Shown here: piece by piece, positions 2,292-53,089 of the stretch
How positions within the stretch are numbered: the first letter of the stretch is position 1
Layout: each line of letters starts with the position of its first letter
Position numbers and translations under genes: made by a program
Virus record (IMG/VR): IMGVR_UViG_3300015610_000614
Coordinates: 35,694-99,693 of that record
Direction: 5' to 3' (one strand)
Source of the DNA: a virus
Lineage: Duplodnaviria; Heunggongvirae; Uroviricota; Caudoviricetes
DNA length: 64,000 nt
The notes under the pieces: generated by a model
Databases searched by the model: none
Seen by the model: only the letters and a program-made list of their open reading frames with translations
Told to the model about the DNA's origin: nothing

Positions 2292-2923
2292 TGGCTACTG
2301 GAATTTATAAGCTTGATTTTTCTGACGGCACATACTACATCGGTCAAGCGGTGGATATAGATGTACGCTATAAACAACACTGTAAAGAGTTGTTAGATAA
2401 AAAGCACTCGGTAAAAATGAATGAAGCGTTTTGTAAAAATGCTCGTATTTTACCTAAGCTTTCTATCATGATAGAGTGTCACAGAGACTATTTAGATATA
2501 TTTGAATGTTTCTTCATTTATAAATATAATAGCGACAGACTTCTAAATACTACCATGCCAAAAGATATTCTAGGTGGATTGACTCAATCGGCCCTAGATA
2601 CTTTAGTAGAAAATAGGTTCAATTCAATTATAAATATAATCGATATTCTAGCTACTCAAGTAGGAAAAATCGAAGGACTAAAAATATCTTTAGAGGAAGC
2701 CGAAGACGAGATAGACCGTTTAGAGCATAAAAGATCTTTAGAGGAACTAGAGCGAGATACTAAGAAACGTATACGTAGATTACAGGACCAAGTAAAATTT
2801 CTCACCAATATTACGGAAGAGAAGGAAACTAGCCTAAGGGACCTTGAAAATCAATATACAGATGTTTCTGATGAATTACGCAAATTAAAATCCAAAGGAT
2901 TCTGGGCAAGAATCTTTGGTTAA
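2291..2923 (+). CDS. GIY-YIG homing endonuclease with a C-terminal coiled coil
   Basis: N-terminus GIYKLDFSDGTYYIGQAVDIDVRYKQH. ATG overlaps the terL stop (taATGg). Confidence 0.7.
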   Translation: MATGIYKLDFSDGTYYIGQAVDIDVRYKQHCKELLDKKHSVKMNEAFCKNARILPKLSIMIECHRDYLDIFECFFIYKYNSDRLLNTTMPKDILGGLTQSALDTLVENRFNSIINIIDILATQVGKIEGLKISLEEAEDEIDRLEHKRSLEELERDTKKRIRRLQDQVKFLTNITEEKETSLRDLENQYTDVSDELRKLKSKGFWARIFG

Positions 2924-2925
2924 TA

Positions 2926-2966
2926 AGAACCCGTATGGTTTATTTGACCATACGGGTTTTTTCTTT
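2926..2966 (+). terminator. Rho-independent terminator after the GIY-YIG gene
   Basis: aacccgtatggt / accatacgggtt stem followed by tttttt. Confidence 0.7.
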
Positions 2967-2987
2967 TGGGCTTTCAATTTTTGGGTG

Positions 2988-3016
2988 TTGACATGTATTA
3001 GGTCCCGTGCTATAAT
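2988..3016 (+). promoter_or_regulatory. Consensus sigma70 promoter (TTGACA, 17-bp spacer, TATAAT)
   Basis: ttgaca at 2988-2993, tataat at 3011-3016, 17-nt spacer. Confidence 0.7.
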
Positions 3017-3044
3017 AGCTACAATTATAAATTTGTACATAAAA

Positions 3045-3521
3045 ATGGCAAAGAATACAGGAATGAAGCGTATCCCTGTAAAATGGATACGTGATAGGGC
3101 TAAGAGCGCATATGAAAAGAAGGAAACTTGCCATATCTGCGGAACAAGCCAAGATCTAGAACTACATCATACTCATTCCATAACTCTACTTTTAGAAGAA
3201 TGGATTAAAGTAAAGGGCTACGATATTTCTACGGACGACGGGATAATTGCAGTAAGAGACGAATTTATTGCAGATCACCACTCTGAGTTATACGATCATG
3301 TATATACCCTGTGTAATAAACATCACGTAATGTTACATGCAGTGTATGGAAAAGCTCCAGCTTTAAATTCTGCTAATAAGCAGGTTAAATGGATTGAGAC
3401 TCAAAAAGCAAAGATTAGTGGCGGGCTAGTAGAGGTTCACAACATATTAGACCCTAAAGAAGCTAATAGATTAGTAAAACCTTGTAAAGACGCTTCGTTA
3501 TCTTTTGCGAAGTTCTTATAA
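3045..3521 (+). CDS. HNH homing endonuclease
   Basis: CHICGTSQDLELHHTHS ... CNKHHVMLH (HNH/Zn motifs). The ORF opens at 2916, but the terminator and promoter lie between 2916 and 3045, so I call the start at the ATG at 3045; the exact start is uncertain. Confidence 0.6.
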   Translation: MAKNTGMKRIPVKWIRDRAKSAYEKKETCHICGTSQDLELHHTHSITLLLEEWIKVKGYDISTDDGIIAVRDEFIADHHSELYDHVYTLCNKHHVMLHAVYGKAPALNSANKQVKWIETQKAKISGGLVEVHNILDPKEANRLVKPCKDASLSFAKFL

Positions 3522-3530
3522 GGAGCACTC

Positions 3531-4751
3531 ATGACATGGTATAACCCAGCAACATGGTTCACAAAAGCTAATCCAGCACAAGAATTAATAGCTAGAGGGG
3601 AAGGCCCTCAAATAGCTAGTGACGTACCAATATCTTTTCAAACATCTTTCTATAACCTAGAAACGGTTAATAGAGGCGTCAATATGATAGTTAGCGCATG
3701 TGCTAGCTTAGACTTTGACATTAAAGATATGAAGATGCCGGGCGTAGTACTAGGTACTAGAAAAGCTAGCTTAAATAACTTATTAAATTATAAACCCAAT
3801 CCAAATCAGTCGGCACAGGAATTTAGAACTGCTATATTTACTGATTTAATAATTGAAGGCAATATCTTCATTTATTATGATGGTGTTTATATGTATCACC
3901 TACCTGCGGTAAACGTAAAGGTAATTCCAGATCCTAAAACGTTTGTATCGCACTATTTATATAATGATATAACTCGCTTCTCTCCGAACGAGATTATTCA
4001 TATAAAAGATATAAATACTACCTCAATTTATAGAGGAACCTCAAGGCTACAAGCCGCTGAGCGCAATATACAGATTCTGTATAAAATGCAGTTATTCCAG
4101 GAACAGTTCTTCAAGAATGGGGCCGTTCCTAGTATGATCTTAACTACAGAGAATACTTTAAGCGAGACTGCTAAACAGAAAACTATTCTAGGTTGGTCAA
4201 GACAGTATAATCCAAATTCCGGAGCTAAGAAACCGCTTATCTTAGATAGCGGCATGAAACCTGTAATAGGTATTTCAGCGTCCTTCCAGGAGATGGATTT
4301 TGATACAAGTATCAAGACACATGATACTAAAATTCTAAAAGCGCTTGGTGTACCACCTATTCTTTTAGACGGTGGTAATAACGCAAATATCTCACCTAAT
4401 TTACGTTTATTCTATCTAGAGACAGTAATACCTATTATTACTAAGTTAGTTTCTGGATTTGAACGCTTCTTTGGTTATGATATATCACCGATTACTAGCA
4501 ACGTATCAGCGCTACAGCCGGAATTAAAAGAAATTGCTAGTTATTACACTACTCTGGTCAACGGTGGAGTAATAACACCAAATGAGGCTAGATTAGAGTT
4601 GCGCTATGAAAAAGACACTGATCCAGCTTCTGATAAACTGCGAGTACCTGCTAACATAGCCGGTTCTGCAGCAGACCCAAGTCAGGGTGGGGCTCCTAAA
4701 AAGCCACAAACTGAACCAAAACCCGCAAAGGAGTTTCATGGACAAATATAA
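3531..4751 (+). CDS. Portal protein
   Basis: 406 aa, sits between terminase and protease/capsid, RBS aaggag precedes the ATG. Confidence 0.65.
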   Translation: MTWYNPATWFTKANPAQELIARGEGPQIASDVPISFQTSFYNLETVNRGVNMIVSACASLDFDIKDMKMPGVVLGTRKASLNNLLNYKPNPNQSAQEFRTAIFTDLIIEGNIFIYYDGVYMYHLPAVNVKVIPDPKTFVSHYLYNDITRFSPNEIIHIKDINTTSIYRGTSRLQAAERNIQILYKMQLFQEQFFKNGAVPSMILTTENTLSETAKQKTILGWSRQYNPNSGAKKPLILDSGMKPVIGISASFQEMDFDTSIKTHDTKILKALGVPPILLDGGNNANISPNLRLFYLETVIPIITKLVSGFERFFGYDISPITSNVSALQPELKEIASYYTTLVNGGVITPNEARLELRYEKDTDPASDKLRVPANIAGSAADPSQGGAPKKPQTEPKPAKEFHGQI

Positions 4752-6663
4752 AGTACTTCATTTAGAGAGTGCTTTCAAAGTCAAGGAGCTTCCCACTGCA
4801 GACGAGCAAATTGACTCTATCTACATTGAGGGGTACGCAAGTACCAACGATATAGATAGAGCAGGTGACGTAGTTCCAGCTTCTGTTTGGGAAGCCGGAA
4901 TCCAGAATTACCTAAAGAATCCAATCATACTAGCTCAACATGACCATGACGATCCTATTGGTAGAATGGTAGAGCATAAGATTGATCCTAAAGGTTTATG
5001 GATTAAGGCACGAATTTCGGCAGCTGCCGAAATATTTAATTTAATTAAAGACGGTGTAGTAACCGCCTTTAGTATCGGTTTCAGAGTACTCGATGCAGAA
5101 TATAACTCTGCTACTGAGCTATTTGTAATCAAAGAGTTGGAACTAGTAGAAATCTCAGTGGTTTCAGTTCCATGTAATCAAAACACTATTTTTACTCTTT
5201 CCAAATCTTTCGCAAACGATGCGGATTACAAGGAATTCAAAAAGCAGTTTGAACCAAAAGAAAATTCAGCTAAAGGGCTAGAAGCCACTAGCGGTTCGAA
5301 AGGCATTTCAAAACAAAAAGGATTTAATATGGATGAAACTCAAATCGCCGCTATGCTAGAAAAGGCTGCTAAGGAAGCTACCGAAAAGGCAATTAAGGCT
5401 GTAGAGGAAAAGGCTGCTAAGGAAGCTGCTGAAAAGGCTGCTAAGGAAGCCGAAGAAAAGGCTATCCAAGACCGCATCGAAAAAGCTGTAGCTGCTCGTA
5501 TTGAAGTAGGTACCAGCGGTGCTGAGCGTCTAGTTCAAGATCTAGCTAAGCGTCTAGAAGAAGAAACTGCCGGCATCAAGGATCTAAAGTCAGCCCTAGC
5601 TGAAAAGACCGAAGAAATTAAGCGTATTCAAGAATCGCGTATGGAATTTAGCGACCGTAAGAGCGCTGACGGTATTACCGATAAGGATAAAGAAACCGCT
5701 GTTCTACTAGGTCAACTAATGGGCAAGAGCCTACGTGACACTAAGTTCGGTGCTGGTCTACTAGAAAAAGCAGGCCCTCACGTTGCTAGCGCTACTTGGG
5801 AACTAGAAGTTTCTATGAATATGGAAGCGGAAGTTCGTCGTCGCCTAGTAGTAGCTCCTCTACTACGTAGTGTAGCGATGAAGACCAACGTTATGACTAT
5901 TCCTGTAAACCCTGAGGCTGGCTATGCTACTTGGGTACAGAATGCTCAGTTCGGTAGTACTGCTTCTGCTGGTGCAGCTCAAACTCACCAACTAAAAGAA
6001 ATTACGCTAAATGCGTACAAGGTTGCAACCCTTGAATATATGAACTTTGAAGAAGAGGAAGACTCTCTACTAGTTCTAATGCCGCTAGTTCGTGACGCTA
6101 TGGTTCGTCGTCTAGCTCTTGCTGTAGATAAGGCTTATCTACTAGGTGCTGGTTCTGGTGCTGATCCTGTTAAGGGCCTATCTATTTATGACGCAACTTC
6201 TGTTGTAACTCCTACCAACACTGGTGTTGCTACTGTTGCTAATATGCGCGCCCTACGTAAGGACTTAGGTGCATGGGGTCTAGAACCTTCTGAACTAGCT
6301 TACATCGTTTCTACTGAAGTTTACTATGACCTACTAGACGACACTCTATTCCAGAGTGTCGATAAGGTTGGTGATAAGGCTACCCTACTAACTGGTCAAG
6401 TTGGTTCTATCGGTAATAGCCCGGTTCTAGTATCTTCTGTATTCCCAACTAAGGCTGGCGGTGCAGCTACTGCTTCTACCAACATCGGTGCTATCGCGTT
6501 TGCTGCAGGTAACTTCCTAGCAGGTAACCAACGTGGTCTACGCTTCGATACTCAAGACCTAGTTGAAACTCAACGTAAGGCTCTAGTAGCTTCTCTACGT
6601 ACTGGTCTAGCGCAAGTTACTACCAACCTTGGTGGTGGCGTTTCTACCCTACGTTGGAGCTAA
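4738..6663 (+). CDS. Fused prohead protease (HK97/S78-like), (EKAAKEA)n linker and HK97-fold major capsid protein
   Basis: N-terminus DSIYIEGYASTNDIDRAGDVV...ILAQHDHDDPIGRMVEH...AFSIGFRV is an S78 protease signature. Then the low-complexity repeat EKAAKEATEKAIKAVEEKAAKEAAEKAAKEAEEKA. The C-terminal ~350 aa are MCP-like. RBS aaggag lies 5 nt before the ATG at 4738; the ORF opens at 4687. Confidence 0.65.
   Translation: MDKYKVLHLESAFKVKELPTADEQIDSIYIEGYASTNDIDRAGDVVPASVWEAGIQNYLKNPIILAQHDHDDPIGRMVEHKIDPKGLWIKARISAAAEIFNLIKDGVVTAFSIGFRVLDAEYNSATELFVIKELELVEISVVSVPCNQNTIFTLSKSFANDADYKEFKKQFEPKENSAKGLEATSGSKGISKQKGFNMDETQIAAMLEKAAKEATEKAIKAVEEKAAKEAAEKAAKEAEEKAIQDRIEKAVAARIEVGTSGAERLVQDLAKRLEEETAGIKDLKSALAEKTEEIKRIQESRMEFSDRKSADGITDKDKETAVLLGQLMGKSLRDTKFGAGLLEKAGPHVASATWELEVSMNMEAEVRRRLVVAPLLRSVAMKTNVMTIPVNPEAGYATWVQNAQFGSTASAGAAQTHQLKEITLNAYKVATLEYMNFEEEEDSLLVLMPLVRDAMVRRLALAVDKAYLLGAGSGADPVKGLSIYDATSVVTPTNTGVATVANMRALRKDLGAWGLEPSELAYIVSTEVYYDLLDDTLFQSVDKVGDKATLLTGQVGSIGNSPVLVSSVFPTKAGGAATASTNIGAIAFAAGNFLAGNQRGLRFDTQDLVETQRKALVASLRTGLAQVTTNLGGGVSTLRWS
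5359..5462 (+). repeat. In-frame tandem nucleotide repeat (gaaaaggctgctaaggaagc)x3 encoding the EKAAKEA linker
   Basis: Direct repeats are visible at 5359-5378, 5408-5430 and 5431-5455. Confidence 0.7.
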
Positions 6664-6670
6664 TCTAACA

Positions 6671-6698
6671 CTGATGGGACTTCGGTCCCATCTTTTAT
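6671..6698 (+). terminator. Rho-independent terminator after the capsid gene
   Basis: gatgggac ttcg gtcccatc tttt; a second weaker hairpin (taagcat...gtgctta) follows. Confidence 0.75.
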
Positions 6699-6740
6699 AA
6701 GCATTTATTTAAGTGCTTATAAAAGATATAAGGAACAAAT

Positions 6741-7310
6741 ATGGGAAATAGTCTAGTATCTAGATCGCAATATAAAACATATGCAGGAATATCGAGTTCT
6801 AATCAAGATGCTAAGATTGATTCTTTAATTCCTATTGTTAGCGCTTTTGTAAAATCATACTGTCGTAGAACTTTCGTAGACTACTACGATACAGAGAAAA
6901 CTGAATACTTTAGAGGCGGAGACGGCTTCTACCCAAAAGAACTACCAATAGTAGAAGTAACTTCTTTAGAATACTCACTTGACTACGGTAAAACATTCTC
7001 TCCAATGGCGGAGTTTACCGATTACGTTATAGACCAGGAAACTAGCCAGATAGTGCCTGCATCTTCTATCTCATTTACGGAAAGAGTAAACGGGTATAGG
7101 TTAACCTATAAGGGTGGATACGAAAGCATTCCAGAAGATTTAATGGTGGCTGTTTTTGACATGATTACTTATTATATCAAAAATGACTCTGCTATTCACT
7201 CCCCTAAAGTACCTGGCAGTAATACAGTACAGATAGAATATATTTCTAGTAGCTCTTTACCAGCTAATATTAAGAGAGTACTGGATATTTATAAAGATAA
7301 CTGGATATGA
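6741..7310 (+). CDS. Head-tail connector (gp6/gp15-like)
   Basis: 189 aa, immediately after the MCP gene, with a typical N-terminus (ISSSNQDAKIDSLIPIVSAFVKSYCRRTF). Confidence 0.5.
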   Translation: MGNSLVSRSQYKTYAGISSSNQDAKIDSLIPIVSAFVKSYCRRTFVDYYDTEKTEYFRGGDGFYPKELPIVEVTSLEYSLDYGKTFSPMAEFTDYVIDQETSQIVPASSISFTERVNGYRLTYKGGYESIPEDLMVAVFDMITYYIKNDSAIHSPKVPGSNTVQIEYISSSSLPANIKRVLDIYKDNWI

Positions 7311-33518: not shown

Positions 33519-34079
33519 TCACTTTATAGGACAGGAACCAGTAGCGCAAGCTTCTTGCTCCATTTCATCGAAACCGTTTACGCCGGTTAGATCAACAGGC
33601 TTTAACTTCGATACGTATTCACGGAATACTTCTTCCGTTACAACTTCTTGTGGTAGGTATAGATAACCTAGATCCTTTGCAGTCTTAGAAGGATCTGCAC
33701 GATATAGGAAACTTACGCCAACATAGCAATCCCAGTTTAGTAATAGCCAATCAATAATTGACGGTACTTCTTCCGGGGAGTAGCTAATAGTGATAGAGGT
33801 ATTTTGTTGCGTCCAGTTAGTCTGTAGCAGCTTATAACGTTCTAATTGCTCTAGAGCTGATTCTAGATTAACTTCCTTACCATTTGCATCCTTGTGGAAA
33901 GGAACATCCGACCACTCTACAGGGAATGTAACTAGTACGCCAGTGTTATCTGTAGGATGATTAAATACGTTATAACCAGCTTCACGTAGAATTGGTACTA
34001 CCGGATCGTGGATACTAAATTGTACATTATTGAAAATATACTTACCAAGAGGCTTATGACCACCTTCGGTAGTATCCAT
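33519..34079 (-). CDS. Ribonucleotide reductase large subunit, C-terminal exon
   Basis: Ends MEQEACATGSCPIK, like the class I NrdA tail CESGACKI. The frame stays open upstream of the ATG to 34193, so exon 2 may begin anywhere between 34080 and 34193. Confidence 0.5.
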   Translation of the reverse strand: MDTTEGGHKPLGKYIFNNVQFSIHDPVVPILREAGYNVFNHPTDNTGVLVTFPVEWSDVPFHKDANGKEVNLESALEQLERYKLLQTNWTQQNTSITISYSPEEVPSIIDWLLLNWDCYVGVSFLYRADPSKTAKDLGYLYLPQEVVTEEVFREYVSKLKPVDLTGVNGFDEMEQEACATGSCPIK

Positions 34080-34099
34080 AATTTTGGAAAGAGTTCCAG

Positions 34100-34432
34100 A
34101 GGGTTTGCATTTATGTTCAATATTACTCGTTAGGTAATACCCGTTTAATAAGTCTATAGTAGTGTGTTTTACTAATGCCGTATTTATCTTTCGCTAATTT
34201 AAATGAACCAGCAGAAAATACATATTATTTTACTTATTAAACAGCTCTATATTACTATAGAGATCGGACTATATCATCACACTATTAAGTGTGTTCTGCG
34301 CTTCCATACACTTGTATGTACTCTATAATAGATAGTCTCTGAACCTTCCGCATATGCGGCTTGGCTGCTGATTGTCCTTAACTTAATAGTAGGAGGTTCC
34401 AGCAATTCACAGAATTTTATTTGCGCCAATTA
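34100..34432 (-). ncRNA. Group I self-splicing intron interrupting the RNR gene (approximate boundaries)
   Basis: Read on the minus strand it contains the canonical group I core elements in order: P AAUUGCUGGAACC (34395-34407), Q AAUCAGCAGCC (34362-34376), R GUUCAGAGACUAUC (34331-34345), S GAUAUAGUCCGAUC (34259-34275). There is no ORF and the blocks are homologous to the polA intron. Confidence 0.7.
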
Positions 34433-35827
34433 CTTAACGCAAGTCACGTTTTTAGGGTGTGGTAGTCCTAGTTCGTCAGCCATACCAATAGCAGCGCCAG
34501 TAGCAGTACGCTTCATGCGCTCATAGTCATACCCTGTAAGGTCAGGACGCTTAGCTACACCAGTAATACCTACACCGCATAGACGTAGGAAATAGTTATT
34601 AATATGCCACGCTTCTTGTAGGATACCATCCTTAAGATTTACACAAGTTTGACGGTAGTTAGCTCGGGCAGCTAGACGCAGAGCGTCAAATAGCCCGGCC
34701 ATATTACCCTTGAACTTACCTAGATCAACTTCCGTAAGATTACAGAAAGACTTATTACCTAGTAGAATCTCTACGCAAGGATTACACCCCTTGAACCACG
34801 GTGCTCGACGTAGCGCTTCTTCTGCGTTAATAAATCCAGGCTCAGAACCCCCGGCTTCTTCCATTAGCTTGAAAATATCTTCAAGTTCTTTGCGAAGAGG
34901 CTTAGTACGGAAAACTAGACTATTATTAGATTGGGTACGATGAGCATTATTATGCATCCACCAATCCTTTTTAGCTACTGCGAATTCTTGCCATTCAGGC
35001 TCGCCATATTCAAATAGAGCAATTTCTGCACTACGACGGCTCGACAAGATGGTACCTAGCCAGTTAACAATATCTAGAATATCCATGCGAGTTAGTAGAG
35101 AATCAGCCCTACCGTTTAGGATATTTGCAATTGCTACGTATGCAACGCTAATGGCCTCATCACCAGAGCTAATCCAGCCATAGCCCTTTAGACGCTCACC
35201 CGCAGGACGCAGTTGACTGAAGTCCAGTACTAGCTTTTTAGCAGGATACTTACCAGCCATTAGCTTACCGATCGACTTAGCCCACGCTTCAGCAGAATCG
35301 CCTACACTAATAGTCCATACGCCAGTTTCAGGATCGAAGGTCTCTACGTTATTTTCGTTACCGCCCTTTTCAGTACGAGTAGAACGAATTACTTCAATAT
35401 TCTTGATTGATTTAGAGAAACCACTAAGAGTACCTACGATGGGGCGGAAACCTACGCCGCAGCCCTGTAGTAGTAGCCAAAGAATATCTACAATATCGTA
35501 AACAGTTTCGGCATTTGTGAAACTGCAATTAAACTGAGAAGCTTCGCGAGTTTTAGCAACTGAGGTACCGCCAAGCCAAAGAGTGCGACCGCTCATAGAG
35601 ATTTTACGATCTAGCATTAGACGTTCTAGATCGTACAGCTCTGCATATTCAGTGTCTAGTAGTTCGCGACCTACTGCACGCTCCCACAGCCATTGCTGGT
35701 GATTGATAACGCGCTCAACAGTGGCTTCCCATGTTTCAAATACTGTACCCTGATCGTTCAATGGACGATTATAGGTACGACGAGTAATAACTTGTGCACG
35801 AGTAGATGGTTTATATTCGATTGTCAT
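34430..35827 (-). CDS. Ribonucleotide reductase large subunit, N-terminal exon
   Basis: GCNPCVEIL matches the RNR active-site N-x-C-x-E motif (E. coli SNLCLEI); an upstream Cys sits in FNCSFTN. Confidence 0.5.
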   Translation of the reverse strand: MTIEYKPSTRAQVITRRTYNRPLNDQGTVFETWEATVERVINHQQWLWERAVGRELLDTEYAELYDLERLMLDRKISMSGRTLWLGGTSVAKTREASQFNCSFTNAETVYDIVDILWLLLQGCGVGFRPIVGTLSGFSKSIKNIEVIRSTRTEKGGNENNVETFDPETGVWTISVGDSAEAWAKSIGKLMAGKYPAKKLVLDFSQLRPAGERLKGYGWISSGDEAISVAYVAIANILNGRADSLLTRMDILDIVNWLGTILSSRRSAEIALFEYGEPEWQEFAVAKKDWWMHNNAHRTQSNNSLVFRTKPLRKELEDIFKLMEEAGGSEPGFINAEEALRRAPWFKGCNPCVEILLGNKSFCNLTEVDLGKFKGNMAGLFDALRLAARANYRQTCVNLKDGILQEAWHINNYFLRLCGVGITGVAKRPDLTGYDYERMKRTATGAAIGMADELGLPHPKNVTCVK

Positions 35828-45697: not shown

Positions 45698-47026
45698 TTA
45701 TTCAATGACTTCGATTGTCCAACCATTTTCCTTATATAATTTCAAGCGTTCTTTAGCTTGCTTATACTCGGTTGGACCATTAAATTGAATGTCTATAGTA
45801 ACGGGCATCTTCTTACTAGAATGCATACGCTGGATACGGCCTATTAGCTGTTCTAGTAGAATTCTGTTACTTGTAGGCTGGGCTAAAACTACGCAGCTTA
45901 GGATGTTGTACGACAAGCCTTCTGTGAAGATTTGTCGGCTACCAGCAATACTGGTAATTTCCTGCGATTCGAGTCTTGAGTCGATTTTTGAACGCTCTTC
46001 GAAAGAGGTTTCGCCTGTAACAAGTAAGCAACTTTCACCAACTTTAGCCTTTAAGTTATTAAGAAATTCAACGCGATCAGCAACTACTAAGACTCTATAT
46101 CCTGCAGCTACTTGAACTTTTACTATATTTGCAATAAAGTCTTGGTATTCTGGATCATACAATAGATTATTAATCTTAGTAGTCCAGTCTACATCAGGAG
46201 TTAATGCAAAATTAGTTGACAATACCTTTACATGAACTGGTAAAGTATTCTCTACTTCTGGTTGGAACATCTTTGTTCCAAAATAGTCTTGGAACAAAAC
46301 GTGCCTATTATCCTTACGCTTAATAGTACCAGATAAACCGATCTTATATCTAGCGTAAGATGAATTTAAAAAGTCTTGGAAAGTAGTAGCAGGGCAATGA
46401 TGTGCCTCATCAACAATTACCGTACCAAATTCTTTACAAATCGTAGTTTGATGCTTCTTTAAAGATTGTATATTACCCACTACAATACAGTGATCGTCTA
46501 CATCAAATTTACCACTACCAATAATGCCTGGACTAATGCCGAACAGCTTCTTAATTTCGCCAGCCCACTGATCTCGTAGAGCTGTGGTATGCACTACTAT
46601 CAACGTTTTCTGGGATAGTTTAGCAGCTACGTGTAGTGCCCAAAACGTCTTACCCCAACCTACCTTAGCATTCATAAAGCAGCAGTCGTGTACTGCATCG
46701 TGCATTTCTTGCTGACTACCAGCACGTAATGGGTACTTCGGCGCGGGGAACGGAATATTATCTGTAATGCGCTTGTCTACTATTTCTGCGTCTTCTGGTA
46801 TAAGGTCTACTCTACCAGAAGGGAAGGAAATCATATTACCGGGCAGTAGGGAGTATGTACGTACAAACTCAATATCACGTTTAGCACGAATTTCTCCAGA
46901 CATAATATCTTTTGTATGTCTAGTAATAGATATTTTATGAGTCAGCGCATTCATTAGCGAGCGTGCATCTATATCACTCTCCGGCAGCTTCATGTAAATT
47001 CTATTACTAATAACTACTTTAGCCAT
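45698..47026 (-). CDS. SF2 DNA helicase (DEAH box)
   Basis: Walker A GWGKT, VIVDEAHH. Confidence 0.7.
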   Translation of the reverse strand: MAKVVISNRIYMKLPESDIDARSLMNALTHKISITRHTKDIMSGEIRAKRDIEFVRTYSLLPGNMISFPSGRVDLIPEDAEIVDKRITDNIPFPAPKYPLRAGSQQEMHDAVHDCCFMNAKVGWGKTFWALHVAAKLSQKTLIVVHTTALRDQWAGEIKKLFGISPGIIGSGKFDVDDHCIVVGNIQSLKKHQTTICKEFGTVIVDEAHHCPATTFQDFLNSSYARYKIGLSGTIKRKDNRHVLFQDYFGTKMFQPEVENTLPVHVKVLSTNFALTPDVDWTTKINNLLYDPEYQDFIANIVKVQVAAGYRVLVVADRVEFLNNLKAKVGESCLLVTGETSFEERSKIDSRLESQEITSIAGSRQIFTEGLSYNILSCVVLAQPTSNRILLEQLIGRIQRMHSSKKMPVTIDIQFNGPTEYKQAKERLKLYKENGWTIEVIE

Positions 47027-47288
47027 AGTACCCGATTTCCGTTTTCTCTGTTAGTTTTTTGTTGCATACAGCACATTTAGTTATGTAGTCGATATATCCT
47101 CGGTCGTAGTAATCCCCTGACACGCTCTTTATTTCGGTCTTAGTTTCTTCGTGAGTGCATACATTTTGCACCCCTGTCTGTAGAGTACTCATATGCTCAC
47201 TTAGCTCCTTCATGGATTTATATAAAGTATCGTATGCTTCTCTACATTTACTAAGATCCTCTAGGAATTCTTTTACACTTTTCGCCAT
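47019..47288 (-). CDS. Small Zn-binding protein
   Basis: CTHEE...CAVCNKKL. Confidence 0.3.
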   Translation of the reverse strand: MAKSVKEFLEDLSKCREAYDTLYKSMKELSEHMSTLQTGVQNVCTHEETKTEIKSVSGDYYDRGYIDYITKCAVCNKKLTEKTEIGYYG

Positions 47289-47812
47289 CTTTTAATTCCA
47301 GTCGGTATTTCGTTTAATAGTCCATATATATACATACTACCTTTGTTACGGATTATAGCAGCATATTTAGGTGGATCTATATAGTAATTACCAAGTACTT
47401 TAAATCTACAGGGAAGACCTTTTACAGCAATTATACTTCCGCCTGCAGGTACTGGTATTACTTTCTCTACTTCATAATATTCAACAGTATATGCTGTGGA
47501 TTTCTTATACTTAAAGAGCTTGCCTTTAGAATCAATATACCAGACGTTAGACTTACTAATTTTAATTAGATCGCCAATAAAGAATATAGCTTTACCTAGC
47601 TTCTTTAACTGGTCACCTCTTACTTTTATATTAAGTCTACGTCTACCGAGTGTGTCACCCGGTACATTTTTATCATCTATAATATACGCAAATGTTGAAA
47701 AACTTCCGTCTTCGTGTTCCTGCTCTTTAAGAAATAGAGAGACCCCATCTTTAACGATAGGGTCTCTTGTTCCAACAACATATACCGGAAAAGTTATTTC
47801 CGATATATCCAT
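47273..47812 (-). CDS. Hypothetical protein
   Basis: 179 aa ORF. Confidence 0.3.
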   Translation of the reverse strand: MDISEITFPVYVVGTRDPIVKDGVSLFLKEQEHEDGSFSTFAYIIDDKNVPGDTLGRRRLNIKVRGDQLKKLGKAIFFIGDLIKISKSNVWYIDSKGKLFKYKKSTAYTVEYYEVEKVIPVPAGGSIIAVKGLPCRFKVLGNYYIDPPKYAAIIRNKGSMYIYGLLNEIPTGIKRWRKV

Positions 47813-47813
47813 C

Positions 47814-48584
47814 TTACTTTTCCTTAGGTTTCTTTACCAGGATACCGTCTACTTCTTCGTAAGTCTTTTCAAACTTGCCGAACGAGTAGTCCTTACCAAT
47901 TTCCTGATCTACACCAATAGGTGTACTGGGGATAGAACAACCACGATCCTTCTTAGTATTTCTACGTAGAATTTCGCAGTATTCTTCAACCTGATCATCA
48001 CGTACTAGCGCTACAATAGAGTCATGTACTAACATGAAGATTTGTGCGTCTAACTTCTTTTCTGCAATTTCAGCTGCGGTATCCATAGCAGCAAACAGAT
48101 TTACATCTGAAGCTAGCGACTGGATCTCAGAGTTAATGCCACTACGAACCTCATGTGAAGCAATGCCCTTATCTGCACTAAATACATTAGTTAGGCGACG
48201 CTTGCGCCCGAAGAACGAATAAGTGAAACCATTGGCTTCAATAAAGTCCTTACGAGACTCTAGCCACTTCTTAAGTTTGCTGAACTTAGTGAAGTAGTCC
48301 TTAATGTTGTCCTTCGCAGTATCTAGGCTGTAGTACTCACCAGTTGCTTTAGTTACGGATTCCGCAACTTTAGCCGGCCCTGAACCGTACAAGATTCCGA
48401 ATGTAATTGCCTTTGCAGCCTGCCGAAGGGCAGGGTATAGGGTTTTAACCTCATCTACCGAACAAGGCAGATTGAAAACCATCTTCGCAATAGTAGAGTG
48501 AAGGTCACCGCCACTAGAGAAAACAGCCTGAAGGTTTTTATCCCCACTCAACACCGCAGCGTAGTACACTTCGGCGGTGGTCAA
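47814..48584 (-). CDS. polA: DNA polymerase I family (PolA), exon 2 (motifs B and C)
   Basis: EVYYAAVLSGDKNLQAVF aligns with ELRIMAHLSRDKGLLTAF. RQAAKAITFGILYG is motif B. LVHDSIV is motif C. There is no ATG at the 5' end (TTG preceded by TAA). Confidence 0.8.
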   Translation of the reverse strand: MTTAEVYYAAVLSGDKNLQAVFSSGGDLHSTIAKMVFNLPCSVDEVKTLYPALRQAAKAITFGILYGSGPAKVAESVTKATGEYYSLDTAKDNIKDYFTKFSKLKKWLESRKDFIEANGFTYSFFGRKRRLTNVFSADKGIASHEVRSGINSEIQSLASDVNLFAAMDTAAEIAEKKLDAQIFMLVHDSIVALVRDDQVEEYCEILRRNTKKDRGCSIPSTPIGVDQEIGKDYSFGKFEKTYEEVDGILVKKPKEK

Positions 48585-48918
48585 CGGTTAACTCCCTAGT
48601 TTTCACTAGAGACCGGACTATATCTTCAACCTCTTGTAATGAATAAGCAAATAATACGTTTTTAGTGCGTATTTTTGCAATTCAGTAAGGCTGCCCCCCG
48701 TTTCGAGCTCATTACTCATGGCCCTACTCCTTTCGGATAGTCTCTGAACGTTCCACCTAAGGTATTAGGTGGCTTCGCTGCTGATTGCCCAATTTCTACA
48801 GTTTTCAAACCATCGCATTCACTATTACTAGTCGTGCTGTGGTCTGTAGAACTTAAGGGGTTTCCAGCAATTAGAGGGGTGTTTATCTCAGTATTACTAC
48901 TAAGAGGGACTTGAAATC
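48585..48918 (-). ncRNA. Group I self-splicing intron in polA
   Basis: Minus-strand P AAUUGCUGGAAACCC (48858-48872), Q AAUCAGCAGCGAAGCC (48771-48790), R GUUCAGAGACUAUC (48736-48749), S AAGAUAUAGUCCGGUC (48608-48624). It inserts right after the motif A Asp (..SIVSQD|) and contains no ORF. Confidence 0.75.
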
Positions 48919-50443
48919 AATCCTGGCTTACAATGCTATATCCAGCTGGAGCGACCAAACATCCTTTAATGATTGGGTCATCTCGCGGAATCTGTTGAGC
49001 ATTAAACTTTCCGCTACTAGATAAGCGCCCAGATGTGGTGAAAATAAGATTGAAATTTGTACGAATTCTTCCATCGTTGTCGATCTCCGGTAAAATCTTA
49101 CTAACATACGAGCTGCTAATTTTGGTAAGAGCACGTAGTTCTAGAATAGCCTTAGGTAGCGGATGCTGATCTGCTAGCTCTTTTAGAACTTCTGCGTCAG
49201 TAGATACCGCACCTGCCTTAGTAAGCTTACCAGTAGGAGTAAGTCCTACGTAGTCAAATAGTACTTTTCGTAGTTGAACTACTGAGCCAGGATTGAAGAT
49301 TTTACCCTCGTCCTTCTCATATTGCTTAACTTCGGGGAAGCTAAATACCTTTTCCTTGGCTGCTGAAATCTGTGTAAACAGATAAGTACCGGCAGCTTTC
49401 ATACGGTCTACACCGATAGGAATACCTACTTCTTCCATATCCATTAGGAACAGAGTACCGCGAATCAGAATATTTCGGTACACCCACTCCAGCTTAGGAT
49501 TATTGAGCACTAGCGGACGGAACTTACGATATAGCTCTAGAGTTACTGCCGTGTCGATAGCAGCATATCGACCAATAACATCCAATGGGATTAGATCGTA
49601 AGTGAAATCTTCCTGAAGAATACCGTGTTTAGCACAATATTCTTTCTTAAAGTCATCTAGTTCTGAATCGTAGTCACCAAAATCGGTGTACTTCAGTGCT
49701 AGCTGCTTTAGACCGTGCGAATCTGTCTCATCTAGAACGTAGTGCATAACCATAGTGTCATGCACGTTATCACGATTGAACCTAAAGCCGAAGTGATATG
49801 CAAGCATCTTATAATCGAACTTCATATTATGAAATACGACTGTATACTTATCAAAAATCTTCTGCATTAGTTCAATATGCTCAGAATCAAGGATATCTGA
49901 TACTAGGTATCTGCCTTGACGTAGCATATGCGACATAGAAATACCTAGTACGTACCCGTCGCGCGGATAAAGTGCAGTAGTTTCAGTATCCACTGCAACT
50001 TCGGTAACGTCACTATTATATACTTCTAATAGATATGCGTATGCTTCTTCCGCATTTGCAATCCACTTATAGTCACCGTTTACTGCTGCATTAGTAATCT
50101 TGCCAGCTAGAACGCCATGAATTTTATTCAGAGCTCGTTCAAAATCAGGCCTCATTTCAGGCTTAAATACTAGCATTGCAGGATTAGAAATACACATATA
50201 CTTGTTGTCAACAAGTAAGCCAGCATGACTAGTTACAGACGTAATTTTTGCGTAATGTTTTGCAGCTTCGGATCCTACTAGAATTACGTAATCATAAAGA
50301 TCCGGGTCAAAATCTAGAGTTACATCTTTCTTTAGTAGCTTTGGAATAGGTACTTCACTCATGTGAAGTAGATCAAACTCAAAATTGAAATGATCTGAAT
50401 AGTTGTTTCGGCTAGGTGCCTTGTCAATTACCGCAATTCTCAT
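48917..50443 (-). CDS. polA: DNA polymerase I family (PolA), exon 1 (3'-5' exonuclease and N-terminal polymerase domain up to motif A)
   Basis: VAVDTETTALYP (Exo I), HNMKFDYKML (Exo II), and ends ...GYSIVSQD (E. coli VIVSAD of motif A). Confidence 0.8.
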   Translation of the reverse strand: MRIAVIDKAPSRNNYSDHFNFEFDLLHMSEVPIPKLLKKDVTLDFDPDLYDYVILVGSEAAKHYAKITSVTSHAGLLVDNKYMCISNPAMLVFKPEMRPDFERALNKIHGVLAGKITNAAVNGDYKWIANAEEAYAYLLEVYNSDVTEVAVDTETTALYPRDGYVLGISMSHMLRQGRYLVSDILDSEHIELMQKIFDKYTVVFHNMKFDYKMLAYHFGFRFNRDNVHDTMVMHYVLDETDSHGLKQLALKYTDFGDYDSELDDFKKEYCAKHGILQEDFTYDLIPLDVIGRYAAIDTAVTLELYRKFRPLVLNNPKLEWVYRNILIRGTLFLMDMEEVGIPIGVDRMKAAGTYLFTQISAAKEKVFSFPEVKQYEKDEGKIFNPGSVVQLRKVLFDYVGLTPTGKLTKAGAVSTDAEVLKELADQHPLPKAILELRALTKISSSYVSKILPEIDNDGRIRTNFNLIFTTSGRLSSSGKFNAQQIPRDDPIIKGCLVAPAGYSIVSQD

Positions 50444-51689: not shown

Positions 51690-53089
51690 GGAATATCTGT
51701 TGATGATTCGTCTTGTTTTAGATTTTCTTTTTTCTTTCCTGCACGCTTAATGCGTGGCTTTTCTTCACCAGATTCAGCATTTTGCTCATCCGGTAATTCC
51801 ATATTATTAGGACTAATACGAAGAGTATCCCAATCTATCGGGCTAGTAAACTTGGCTTCTGCTCCACCACGAATCTTAGTAGTTTCATAGGTAATAGCTC
51901 CCTTACTCTTGTCATGTACTTTAGACTTCAAAGCAATATCAGCAGGATCCAAAATACCTTTAGCGAAACGAGCTTCTCCCGACTCATCAGTTTGGTAAGG
52001 TGCGTAAATCGCTACATCATGCTTACGTGCAAGCTCCTTAAGTTTAGTAGCTACAATAATCTGCGCTTTCCAGTCGTACTTATCACCAGTAGCTCCCTCA
52101 AGTACAACCTGGTTAACATAGTCTACTACTGCTAGTTTGAACTTGTCACCATGCTTGGCTTTGAGTTTACCAATGTGCAGGTCAATAGCTGTAATAGTTA
52201 AAGCCCGATCATCAATGATAATTGGAGCCTCGTCCTTCAGCTTTTTAGATCGTACTAAATCTTTTTCAAATTTAATACGGTTTCTATGCTTGATAAAGTC
52301 CTGCACTAGTTCGTCAGCATCTAGGAACATTGCAGCACGTGCCTTAACAACCTTCAACCAATCATCGTCAGTCAATGTGCCCTTTTTAAGCCCGGAGTGG
52401 CTAACTTGGGCGTGCATAGCCATATTACGCTGCATTACTTCGTGGCCGGACATTTCAATAGTGAAATAAGGACATACGAAGCCTGATTCATACTGGTTAG
52501 TTTGAATATTACTACAGCTAATAGACTTACCTGAGCCTCGGTGACCACCCTGAAGAATAAGCTCTCCAGTAGCAACACCACCTAGCATTGAGTCGAACGT
52601 GTTATTAAGGCCTAGATATACCCTATTCTTAGCTAGAGTTTCCTCGTCTCGGAATAGAAGTAGATCAGCCATAGAATACACATTCTCAGATGAAAATGTC
52701 TTCTCGTCTAGCTTAAGTACAATCTCAGCCAGGCCATCTTTAGTTTCCTGTGCTGAATACATTGGCAAGTTATTTAAAAACTTGTCTAGAAAGTCAATCG
52801 TAAGATTTTGAGTATACTGGTCAATCAGAGCATCTAAAGCTACTTCTGCACTGATATTTTCTACGTCCAGTAGCTTTACAGCTGCTAGAGTACGAAGCGC
52901 TGGACCACTACGAAGCTGGATCTCTAATTCTTCAAAATTAGGTAGCTTACTGTATGTGTCGTAATATTTATGGATTACCGTGTATAGAGACGAATATGCT
53001 GGATCTAGATAAAGTAGTTTTAGGCGTGCCCAAATCTCGAGATTATTCTCGCCCAATACTTTATTTAGAACTACTGCACTTACATCCAT
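51680..53089 (-). CDS. DnaB-family replicative helicase
   Basis: Walker A GGHRGSGKS, LAVVDYVNQV (Walker B/H4 region), 469 aa. Confidence 0.75.
   Translation of the reverse strand: MDVSAVVLNKVLGENNLEIWARLKLLYLDPAYSSLYTVIHKYYDTYSKLPNFEELEIQLRSGPALRTLAAVKLLDVENISAEVALDALIDQYTQNLTIDFLDKFLNNLPMYSAQETKDGLAEIVLKLDEKTFSSENVYSMADLLLFRDEETLAKNRVYLGLNNTFDSMLGGVATGELILQGGHRGSGKSISCSNIQTNQYESGFVCPYFTIEMSGHEVMQRNMAMHAQVSHSGLKKGTLTDDDWLKVVKARAAMFLDADELVQDFIKHRNRIKFEKDLVRSKKLKDEAPIIIDDRALTITAIDLHIGKLKAKHGDKFKLAVVDYVNQVVLEGATGDKYDWKAQIIVATKLKELARKHDVAIYAPYQTDESGEARFAKGILDPADIALKSKVHDKSKGAITYETTKIRGGAEAKFTSPIDWDTLRISPNNMELPDEQNAESGEEKPRIKRAGKKKENLKQDESSTDIPWN

Follow-up and report, generated by a model that had tools for sequence, protein, structure and literature searches.

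A group I intron with a deleted endonuclease gene, directly after the motif A aspartate codon of a T5-like phage DNA polymerase gene

The family A DNA polymerase of an uncultured, T5-like (Demerecviridae-related) phage is encoded by a single gene, into which a group I intron of 335 nt is inserted between the Asp codon GAU (ending at position 48920) and the Leu codon UUG (starting at 48584). All positions refer to the window, the 64,000-nucleotide stretch of the IMG/VR virus record IMGVR_UViG_3300015610_000614 that was analysed here. The intron has recently lost its own, putative homing endonuclease gene, and the analysis makes it very probable that guanosine-initiated self-splicing restores a single polymerase mRNA. 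Such an intron had been predicted from the sequence at 48585–48918; its 3′ edge was correctly placed, but its 5′ edge was one base short, the intron spanning 48585–48919.

The polymerase gene and its splice sites

The three parts of the interrupted gene are as follows:

48920–50443, minus strand: polymerase exon 1, with the 3′-5′ exonuclease domain and the N-terminal part of the polymerase domain; its last codon is the motif A Asp codon GAU (48920–48922)
48585–48919, minus strand: group I intron, IA2-like, endonuclease gene deleted (335 nt; Rfam RF00028)
47814–48584, minus strand: polymerase exon 2, which completes motif A (LTTAE...) and holds motifs B and C as well as the stop codon

In the list of open reading frames, the upstream ORF (48917–50443, minus strand) has the C-terminus ...PAGYSIVSQD, followed by TGA. 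The downstream ORF (47814–48584, minus strand) has a TTG start and reads (L)TTAEVYYAAVLSGDKNLQAVF; as had been noted, it has no ATG, and the TTG is preceded by an in-frame TAA, here located at 48588–48590. The Pfam DNA_pol_A profile is split between the two, with positions 22–158 in the upstream ORF and 163–379 in the downstream ORF, so that the break costs only about four profile positions, and DNA_pol_A_exo1 is matched in exon 1. This confirms the predicted break at the motif A Asp (...GYSIVSQD).

Joining the exons gives one open reading frame of 764 amino acids, in which ...GYSIVSQD is followed by LTTAEVYYAAVLSGDK (...GYSIVSQD/LTTAEVYY..., the slash marking the junction). Motif A is restored as anticipated, but reads D-L-T-T-A-E rather than the proposed D-Y/L-xx-E. 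The junction aligns without gaps to the polymerase of Vibrio phage Thalassa, a T5-like member of the Demerecviridae (IVAKDLTTAEVYYAAVLSGD), and to motif A of Taq polymerase (LDYSQIELRVLAHLSGD; LVALDYSQIELRVLAHLSGD), which places the intron directly 3′ of the catalytic motif A Asp, which corresponds by alignment to Taq D610 and E. coli D705. The spliced polymerase is 51% identical in amino acids to that of Thalassa over 796 aligned columns. The Taq alignment spans motifs A–C, and the exonuclease and polymerase domains are continuous once the exons are joined, as in a family A DNA polymerase.

The whole 64-kb window was scanned against Rfam at gathering thresholds (50 bits for Intron_gpI), the check put forward with the original prediction. 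Two matches were obtained, both to Intron_gpI (RF00028): the polymerase copy, at 48594–48929 on the minus strand (104.2 bits, E 5.8e-26, model positions 1–253, i.e., full coverage), and a second copy at 34245–34446, also on the minus strand.

The first base of the intron is the U of the TGA stop codon that ends the upstream ORF. In the cmscan alignment, U48920 stands opposite the guide G48910 in P1, forming a U·G wobble, which is a hallmark of the group I 5′ splice site. At the other end, the Rfam match stops at G48594, and splicing there would keep the in-frame TAA in the mRNA; G48585 (...GUUAACCG/UUGACC) is the only G that yields an open, homologous reading frame. Of the other nine introns inserted at this codon, seven have the same (U)AACCG ending, while those of contigs L126 and L128 end in ...UAAAUG and ...UGAUUUG, respectively. 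The splice sites could thus be placed from the P1–P10 pairing, as had been suggested, by the wobble at U48920, the omega-G at 48585 and the P10 pairing UUGA/UCAA.

Ribozyme structure and comparative analysis

The structural elements of the intron, all on the minus strand, are listed in 5′ to 3′ order. The core elements P, Q, R and S each occur once and in the canonical order that had been described for them; pair counts refer to the alignment presented below.

48907–48923, minus strand: P1 with the internal guide sequence, exon GGAU (48923–48920) and intron U48919 against AGUCC (48911–48907)
48914–48911, minus strand: P10 guide strand UCAA, immediately 5′ of the guide G
48886–48905, minus strand: P2, 8 bp, GUAA tetraloop; 8/8 pairs compensatory, 100% of cells pair
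48874–48879, minus strand: P3 5′ strand CCCCUC, partner 48694–48699; 100% of cells pair, 3/6 pairs compensatory
48858–48872, minus strand: element P
48779–48869, minus strand: P4 (UGCUGG/UCAGCA), enclosing the P5-P5a-P5b-P5c arm; P4 invariant, P5a 8/8 compensatory, distal stems covary
48776–48786, minus strand: element Q
48748–48778, minus strand: P6/P6a hairpin, from cmscan, fold and alignment
48736–48749, minus strand: element R
48738–48742, minus strand: P7 5′ strand GACUA, inside element R, pairs with 48616–48620 (P3/P7 pseudoknot); invariant in 10/10 introns
48728–48737, minus strand: P7.1 (UCC-GAAA-GGA); 3/3 pairs compensatory
48705–48724, minus strand: P7.2, 7 bp; outer stem 5/5 compensatory
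48717–48719, minus strand: AUG of the former endonuclease ORF, within the P7.2 stem
48694–48699, minus strand: P3 3′ strand GGGGGG, partner of CCCCUC
48628–48692, minus strand: P8 stem AGCCUU/GAGGUU with a 53-nt loop, which is what is left of the endonuclease gene
48616–48620, minus strand: P7 3′ strand UAGUC, inside element S, partner of GACUA
48613–48626, minus strand: element S
48593–48612, minus strand: P9, 8 bp, GAAA tetraloop; 6/8 pairs compensatory
48585–48592, minus strand: 3′ tail GUUAACCG with the terminal omega-G at 48585, from frame and homology
48581–48584, minus strand: P10 exon strand UUGA, bases 1–4 of exon 2, partner of the guide UCAA

An unconstrained thermodynamic fold of the 335 nt has an energy of −101.6 kcal/mol (z = −5.26 against dinucleotide shuffles), and this minimum-energy structure independently reproduces P2, P3, P4, P5/P5a–c, P6, P7.1, P7.2, P8 and P9. 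The loops of P2 and P9 are GNRA tetraloops (GUAA and GAAA). P7.1 and P7.2, located between P7 and the 3′ strand of P3, are characteristic of subgroup IA, to which the introns of T4, SPO1 and Twort belong, and from these two hairpins I infer that the intron belongs to IA2.

Nine further distinct introns were identified at the identical codon, in uncultured T5-like contigs with DnaB-primase-polymerase synteny, through searches with conserved intron words and with the intron ORF family described below. Those of L093 (= L094) and L118 are ORF-less, with short P8 hairpins; those of L103, L099 (= L119), L124, L126, L127, L128 and L129 each carry an ORF of 306–369 amino acids. A metagenome scan contributed a single new homologue, the ORF-less L118, and a scan of viral contigs with the intron 3′-end pattern returned mostly unrelated introns.

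I generated an alignment (A3) of the 10 distinct introns, that of the window and the nine homologues, from which the ORFs had been cut out of the P8 loop beforehand. In this alignment 93.1% of base-pair cells form standard pairs, compared with 32–47% when the partners are slid by 1–3 columns; compensatory changes on both sides are seen at 55 of 89 pairs, and none of 500 shuffles reaches any of the observed measures. Nearly every pair covaries in P2, P5a, the distal P5 stem, P7.1, the outer P7.2 stem and P9. P1 tracks the exon codon, with CAG GAU accompanied by GUCC and UGC GAU by GUCGC (GCGAU/GUCGC in L126 and L128). The P10 partners also change together (UUGA/UCAA, CUAC/GUAG in L099, CUAG/CUAG in L126, CUAUC/GAUAG in L128), with three of the four pairs changing jointly. 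P4 and P7 are invariant across the 10 introns and are therefore uninformative for covariation, while the low scores of the proximal P5 stem and of the inner pairs of P7.2 in the automatic alignment probably reflect misalignment. Overall, this comparison of sequences supports helices P1–P10, with P4 and P7 being invariant.

Characterised group I introns suggest, by analogy, how splicing would proceed. The transcribed RNA would fold into P1–P10, and an exogenous guanosine would attack after U48920, which the internal guide sequence holds in the U·G wobble. The 3′-OH thus freed on exon 1 would then attack after the terminal G48585, with P10 (UCAA/UUGA) aligning exon 2, and the ligated mRNA would encode the 764-residue polymerase with its D-L-T-T-A-E motif. 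If the RNA stayed unspliced, the first three intron bases, UGA, would act as a stop codon. Exon 2 might to some extent be translated independently from such RNA, by means of a Shine-Dalgarno-like GGGAG located 7 nt upstream of the UUG, although this sequence sits in the P9 stem.

This GGGAG, together with the fact that UUG is a permitted bacterial start codon and that gene callers annotate two genes here in public assemblies, would fit a different arrangement, in which an exonuclease/N-terminal polypeptide and a palm/fingers polypeptide assemble, exon 2 is translated from its own UUG and the intron is a dead relic. I consider this highly improbable. Motif A itself is broken, its catalytic Asp being separated from the remainder; all ribozyme helices and core elements are intact and under compensatory selection (P4/P7 being invariant); and the spliced junction is gap-free against single-chain polymerases. 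Moreover, among the homologues the first codon of exon 2 is UUG, UUA or CUA, always Leu and mostly a non-start codon. Since UUA and CUA encode Leu and are unable to start translation, the UUG of the window is to be read as a Leu codon, which bears out the earlier argument from the TTG against a two-subunit polymerase. The two 'polymerase' ORFs, called in the same way in several public assemblies, are one gene, and gene callers will keep splitting it unless the intron is recognised.

None of 80 related IMG/VR polymerase genes fetched (65–73% amino acid identity) has an insertion at the motif A codon, which shows a patchy distribution of the intron, as of a mobile element. Every examined contig with the intron, or with a looked-up relative of the intron ORF, has it at the motif A codon. 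Across the distant homologues the intron cores are 72–79% identical, compared with 62–77% for the exon flanks, which is no clear sign of recent horizontal transfer.

In the phage collection, near-identical DNA was limited to a 38-nt match of the P7/P7.1 core: window positions 48719–48756 (P6 end, P7 and P7.1) are 94.7% identical to Klebsiella phages RCIP0039, HF0522 and KPN234 and to Acinetobacter phage vB_AbaA_LLY, all T7-like. In RCIP0039, the one record examined, the match is close to the RNA polymerase gene, opposite in strand to an annotated 'hypothetical protein', and probably belongs to another unannotated group I intron. A more distant blastn search of the intron against phages gave similarity in the conserved core only, covering at most 48% of the intron. 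These core matches are introns in unrelated genes and phages (phiKZ-like, PBS1/AR9, Flavobacterium FPSV-D18, Salmonella T5-like helicase), and none of those examined is in a polymerase gene.

Loss of the endonuclease gene

The original prediction held the exons to be separated by about 330 nt devoid of an ORF; the separation is as described, but a 33-codon remnant ORF is present within it:

48618–48719, minus strand: remnant ORF, 33 codons (MSNELETGGSLTELQKYALK...), the first 20 codons identical to the intact 329-residue ORF of L130
48660–48665, minus strand: deletion scar with one CTAAAA left, where L130 has two copies 808 nt apart

L130 (Logan SRR30909886) is a sister contig, collinear with window positions 51719–45538 and about 94% identical to it. 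Its intron (2800–3943, 1143 nt) contains an intact ORF of 329 amino acids (P0019) in P8. The window intron corresponds to that of L130 minus 808 nt bounded by the two CTAAAA repeats, and the retained parts are 99.2% and 100% identical. C-terminal codons of the intact ORF (FAYSLQEVED...) persist in the window in another frame. Read from this pair of sequences, the 808-bp loss is a microhomology-mediated deletion confined to the P8 loop. It removed the gene and left a compact, apparently intact ribozyme, now immobile unless helped in trans.

It could be argued that the 808-nt deletion, or other changes, disabled splicing, so that a real intron now interrupts a polymerase pseudogene in a defective genome. 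The deletion did leave an unstructured 53-nt P8 loop, which could in principle slow folding. However, it lies wholly within that loop with the stem intact, the natural ORF-less homologues L093 and L118 have short P8 hairpins, and what is retained of the intron is 99–100% identical to its ORF-bearing sister. In addition, the same contig was assembled from several samples, in one of them at ~274x coverage, which suggests a replicating phage in need of a working polymerase. A splicing-dead intron is thus very unlikely, and the features above favour an intron that still splices.

The homologues hold some 840–860 nt more in the P8 loop. In those with an ORF, the reading frame begins in P7.2 or P8, takes up the P8 loop, continues through P7′/P9, and ends at the 3′ splice site or, in most copies, beyond it in exon 2. 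The window copy, by contrast with a mobile intron encoding its endonuclease, has only the 33-codon stump. A tblastn search of the 64-kb window with the ORF family found this remnant (97.6% identity with P0019) and no free-standing copy of the endonuclease. The ORF at 47273–47812, just downstream of the polymerase, was considered as a free-standing endonuclease and rejected; it is a conserved T5-like gene (phrog_4386), found in the same place in Thalassa. The small genes downstream of the polymerase, around ORF 47019–47288 (window 47016–47315), are the stretch most divergent from L130, at 67–83% identity in 150-nt windows.

The intron ORF family comprises 61 protein clusters (P0001–P0061), all unnamed, of 300–370 amino acids; examples are encoded at L103:5951–6985 and L099:4535–5515. 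No sequence match was found in Pfam, PHROGs or the PDB. The N-terminal two thirds of the ORF include Cys-rich modules. An AlphaFold model (pLDDT 85.8) shows a C-terminal PD-(D/E)xK/Vsr-like nuclease domain, nearest to TnsA and the homing endonuclease I-Bth0305I; further points of comparison for the lost gene are AbaSI, VRR-NUC and Vsr. I-Bth0305I (of the EDxHD family) and I-Ssp6803I are group I intron homing endonucleases with PD-(D/E)xK-type folds. The conserved residues of the sister-intron ORF (S-x-x-E ... H-x-x-D-F ... E-V-T ... K), in contrast to those of I-Bth0305I, differ from the EDxHD motif. In each of the seven genomic contexts checked (L103, L099, L124, L126, L127, L129 and L130), the ORF lies in the polymerase motif A intron; L128, the eighth, is a fragment of 2.3 kb in which only the split polymerase is seen. 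The family is a candidate for an undescribed homing endonuclease family, and homing by the sister-intron ORF is likely by analogy.

The intron lineage occupies the same codon in many environmental T5-like phages, normally with an endonuclease gene for 300–370 amino acids. A broader reading, which I put forward tentatively and at slightly less than even chances, is that the window intron survives, without its endonuclease, from an undescribed lineage of mobile introns that is specific to the motif A codon in T5-like polymerases, that the ORF represents a new PD-(D/E)xK/Vsr-like homing family, and that the ORF-less copy can still spread in trans when a sister phage co-infects. Identity between the window and L130 peaks at 96–100% from ~49170 to 48366 and falls to 83–93% further out. 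This peak around the intron is suggestive of recent sharing of the intron with adjacent exon sequence, and may represent a co-conversion tract from spread in trans.

In L129, exon 2 of the polymerase is 83.7% identical to that of the window in amino acids and exon 1 only 64.1%, a step much larger than in other relatives. This difference is a hint of recombination whose boundary coincides with the intron or lies close to it.

Known introns and other mobile elements

Phage Pol A genes are well known to harbour group I introns, and the window adds a site and the T5-like lineage to the known cases. Three sites have been described (E. coli numbering): 674 in SPO1, SP82, Bastille and the cyanophage Pf-WMP3; 676 in the Xanthomonas phage phiL7; and 881 in the T7-like PhiI and W31 (PMC3428280). 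Further examples occur in the Bastillevirinae and in Shewanella phage KASIA (PMC11878797, PMC8541194). Like these phage group IA2 introns, that of the window is patchy among relatives, has a stop codon at its very start, and coexists in ORF-bearing and ORF-less versions. Unlike them, it is inserted directly after the motif A Asp, which is none of the three sites in PMC3428280, it resides in a T5-like siphovirus, and the ORF of its lineage lies in P8 rather than P6a and is not of the HNH type. A search of the literature for introns in T5-like/Demerecviridae polymerases returned no report, which does not prove absence; likewise, neither the site after residue 705, nor the T5-like host lineage, nor the associated nuclease family was found in the literature searched.

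Loss of the endonuclease gene with retention of the ribozyme, and the presence of ORF-plus and ORF-minus alleles in near-identical genomes, is shared with the Streptococcus thermophilus phage lysin intron and its deletion derivatives (cited in PMC8541194) and with the homing cycle model (PMC1654191). The difference lies in resolution, as the event in the window is mapped to the base, 808 bp between 6-bp CTAAAA repeats in genomes that are 94% identical. Our understanding of group I introns is unchanged by this finding; what it provides is a pair of sequences that show, to the base, a phage intron before and after losing its homing endonuclease gene. The 335-nt ribozyme and its natural relatives of ~280 nt could serve as small self-splicing modules, and the unannotated nuclease of the sister introns is a candidate new site-specific endonuclease.

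The second Rfam match in the window belongs to an ORF-less intron in a class II (B12-dependent) ribonucleotide reductase gene:

34108–34436, minus strand: second group I intron, 329 nt; Rfam 102.9 bits for 34245–34446
34437–35827 and 33519–34107, minus strand: ribonucleotide reductase exons

Protein continuity places its splice sites after ...ACUUGCGU (5′) and after ...AAAUG (3′), the 3′ end lying ~137 nt past the Rfam match. Joining the exons gives ...NVTCV/KPSGTLS..., and a 98-residue peptide spanning this junction matches intron-less phage reductase genes over 294 nt without interruption. No tRNA genes were found in the 64-kb window with ARAGORN.

Seven of the 80 related IMG/VR polymerase genes are interrupted in motif B (around ...KAI(T/S)FG/ILYG). 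Five such relatives (L008, L011, L020, L051 and L071) have an insertion of ~1.1 kb, none of which reaches the Rfam threshold; in the one examined, L008:5711–6819, it encodes a LAGLIDADG protein. L018:2272–2840 contains two group I introns in tandem, scoring 79 and 65 bits, with a mini-exon of ~38 nt between them. In L126 (JGI 3300075147; regions 3925–4692 and 5727–6924) the polymerase is split three ways, by the motif A intron and a second interruption, and the helicase gene has Pfam intein-splicing and LAGLIDADG matches. A LAGLIDADG-like ORF lies between replication genes at L124:5776–6537. The replication module of this T5-like phage group seems to be heavily colonised by selfish elements.

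That related contigs carry inteins and LAGLIDADG genes in neighbouring genes is not specific support for an intein, a group II intron or an insertion sequence in the window polymerase gene, and the chance of such an element is negligible: stop codons in all three frames rule out an intein, group I is the sole Rfam family matched at gathering threshold, which also disposes of a group II intron, and no transposase-like ORF is found in an element of just 335 nt.

Finally, in the cultured Salmonella phage Kenya-K44 (Tequintavirus; L082) a 'DNA helicase' is annotated in two pieces (2646–5014). Between these lie an unannotated ORF and a group I core-like sequence, 74% identical to positions 40–148 of the window intron and below the Rfam gathering score.
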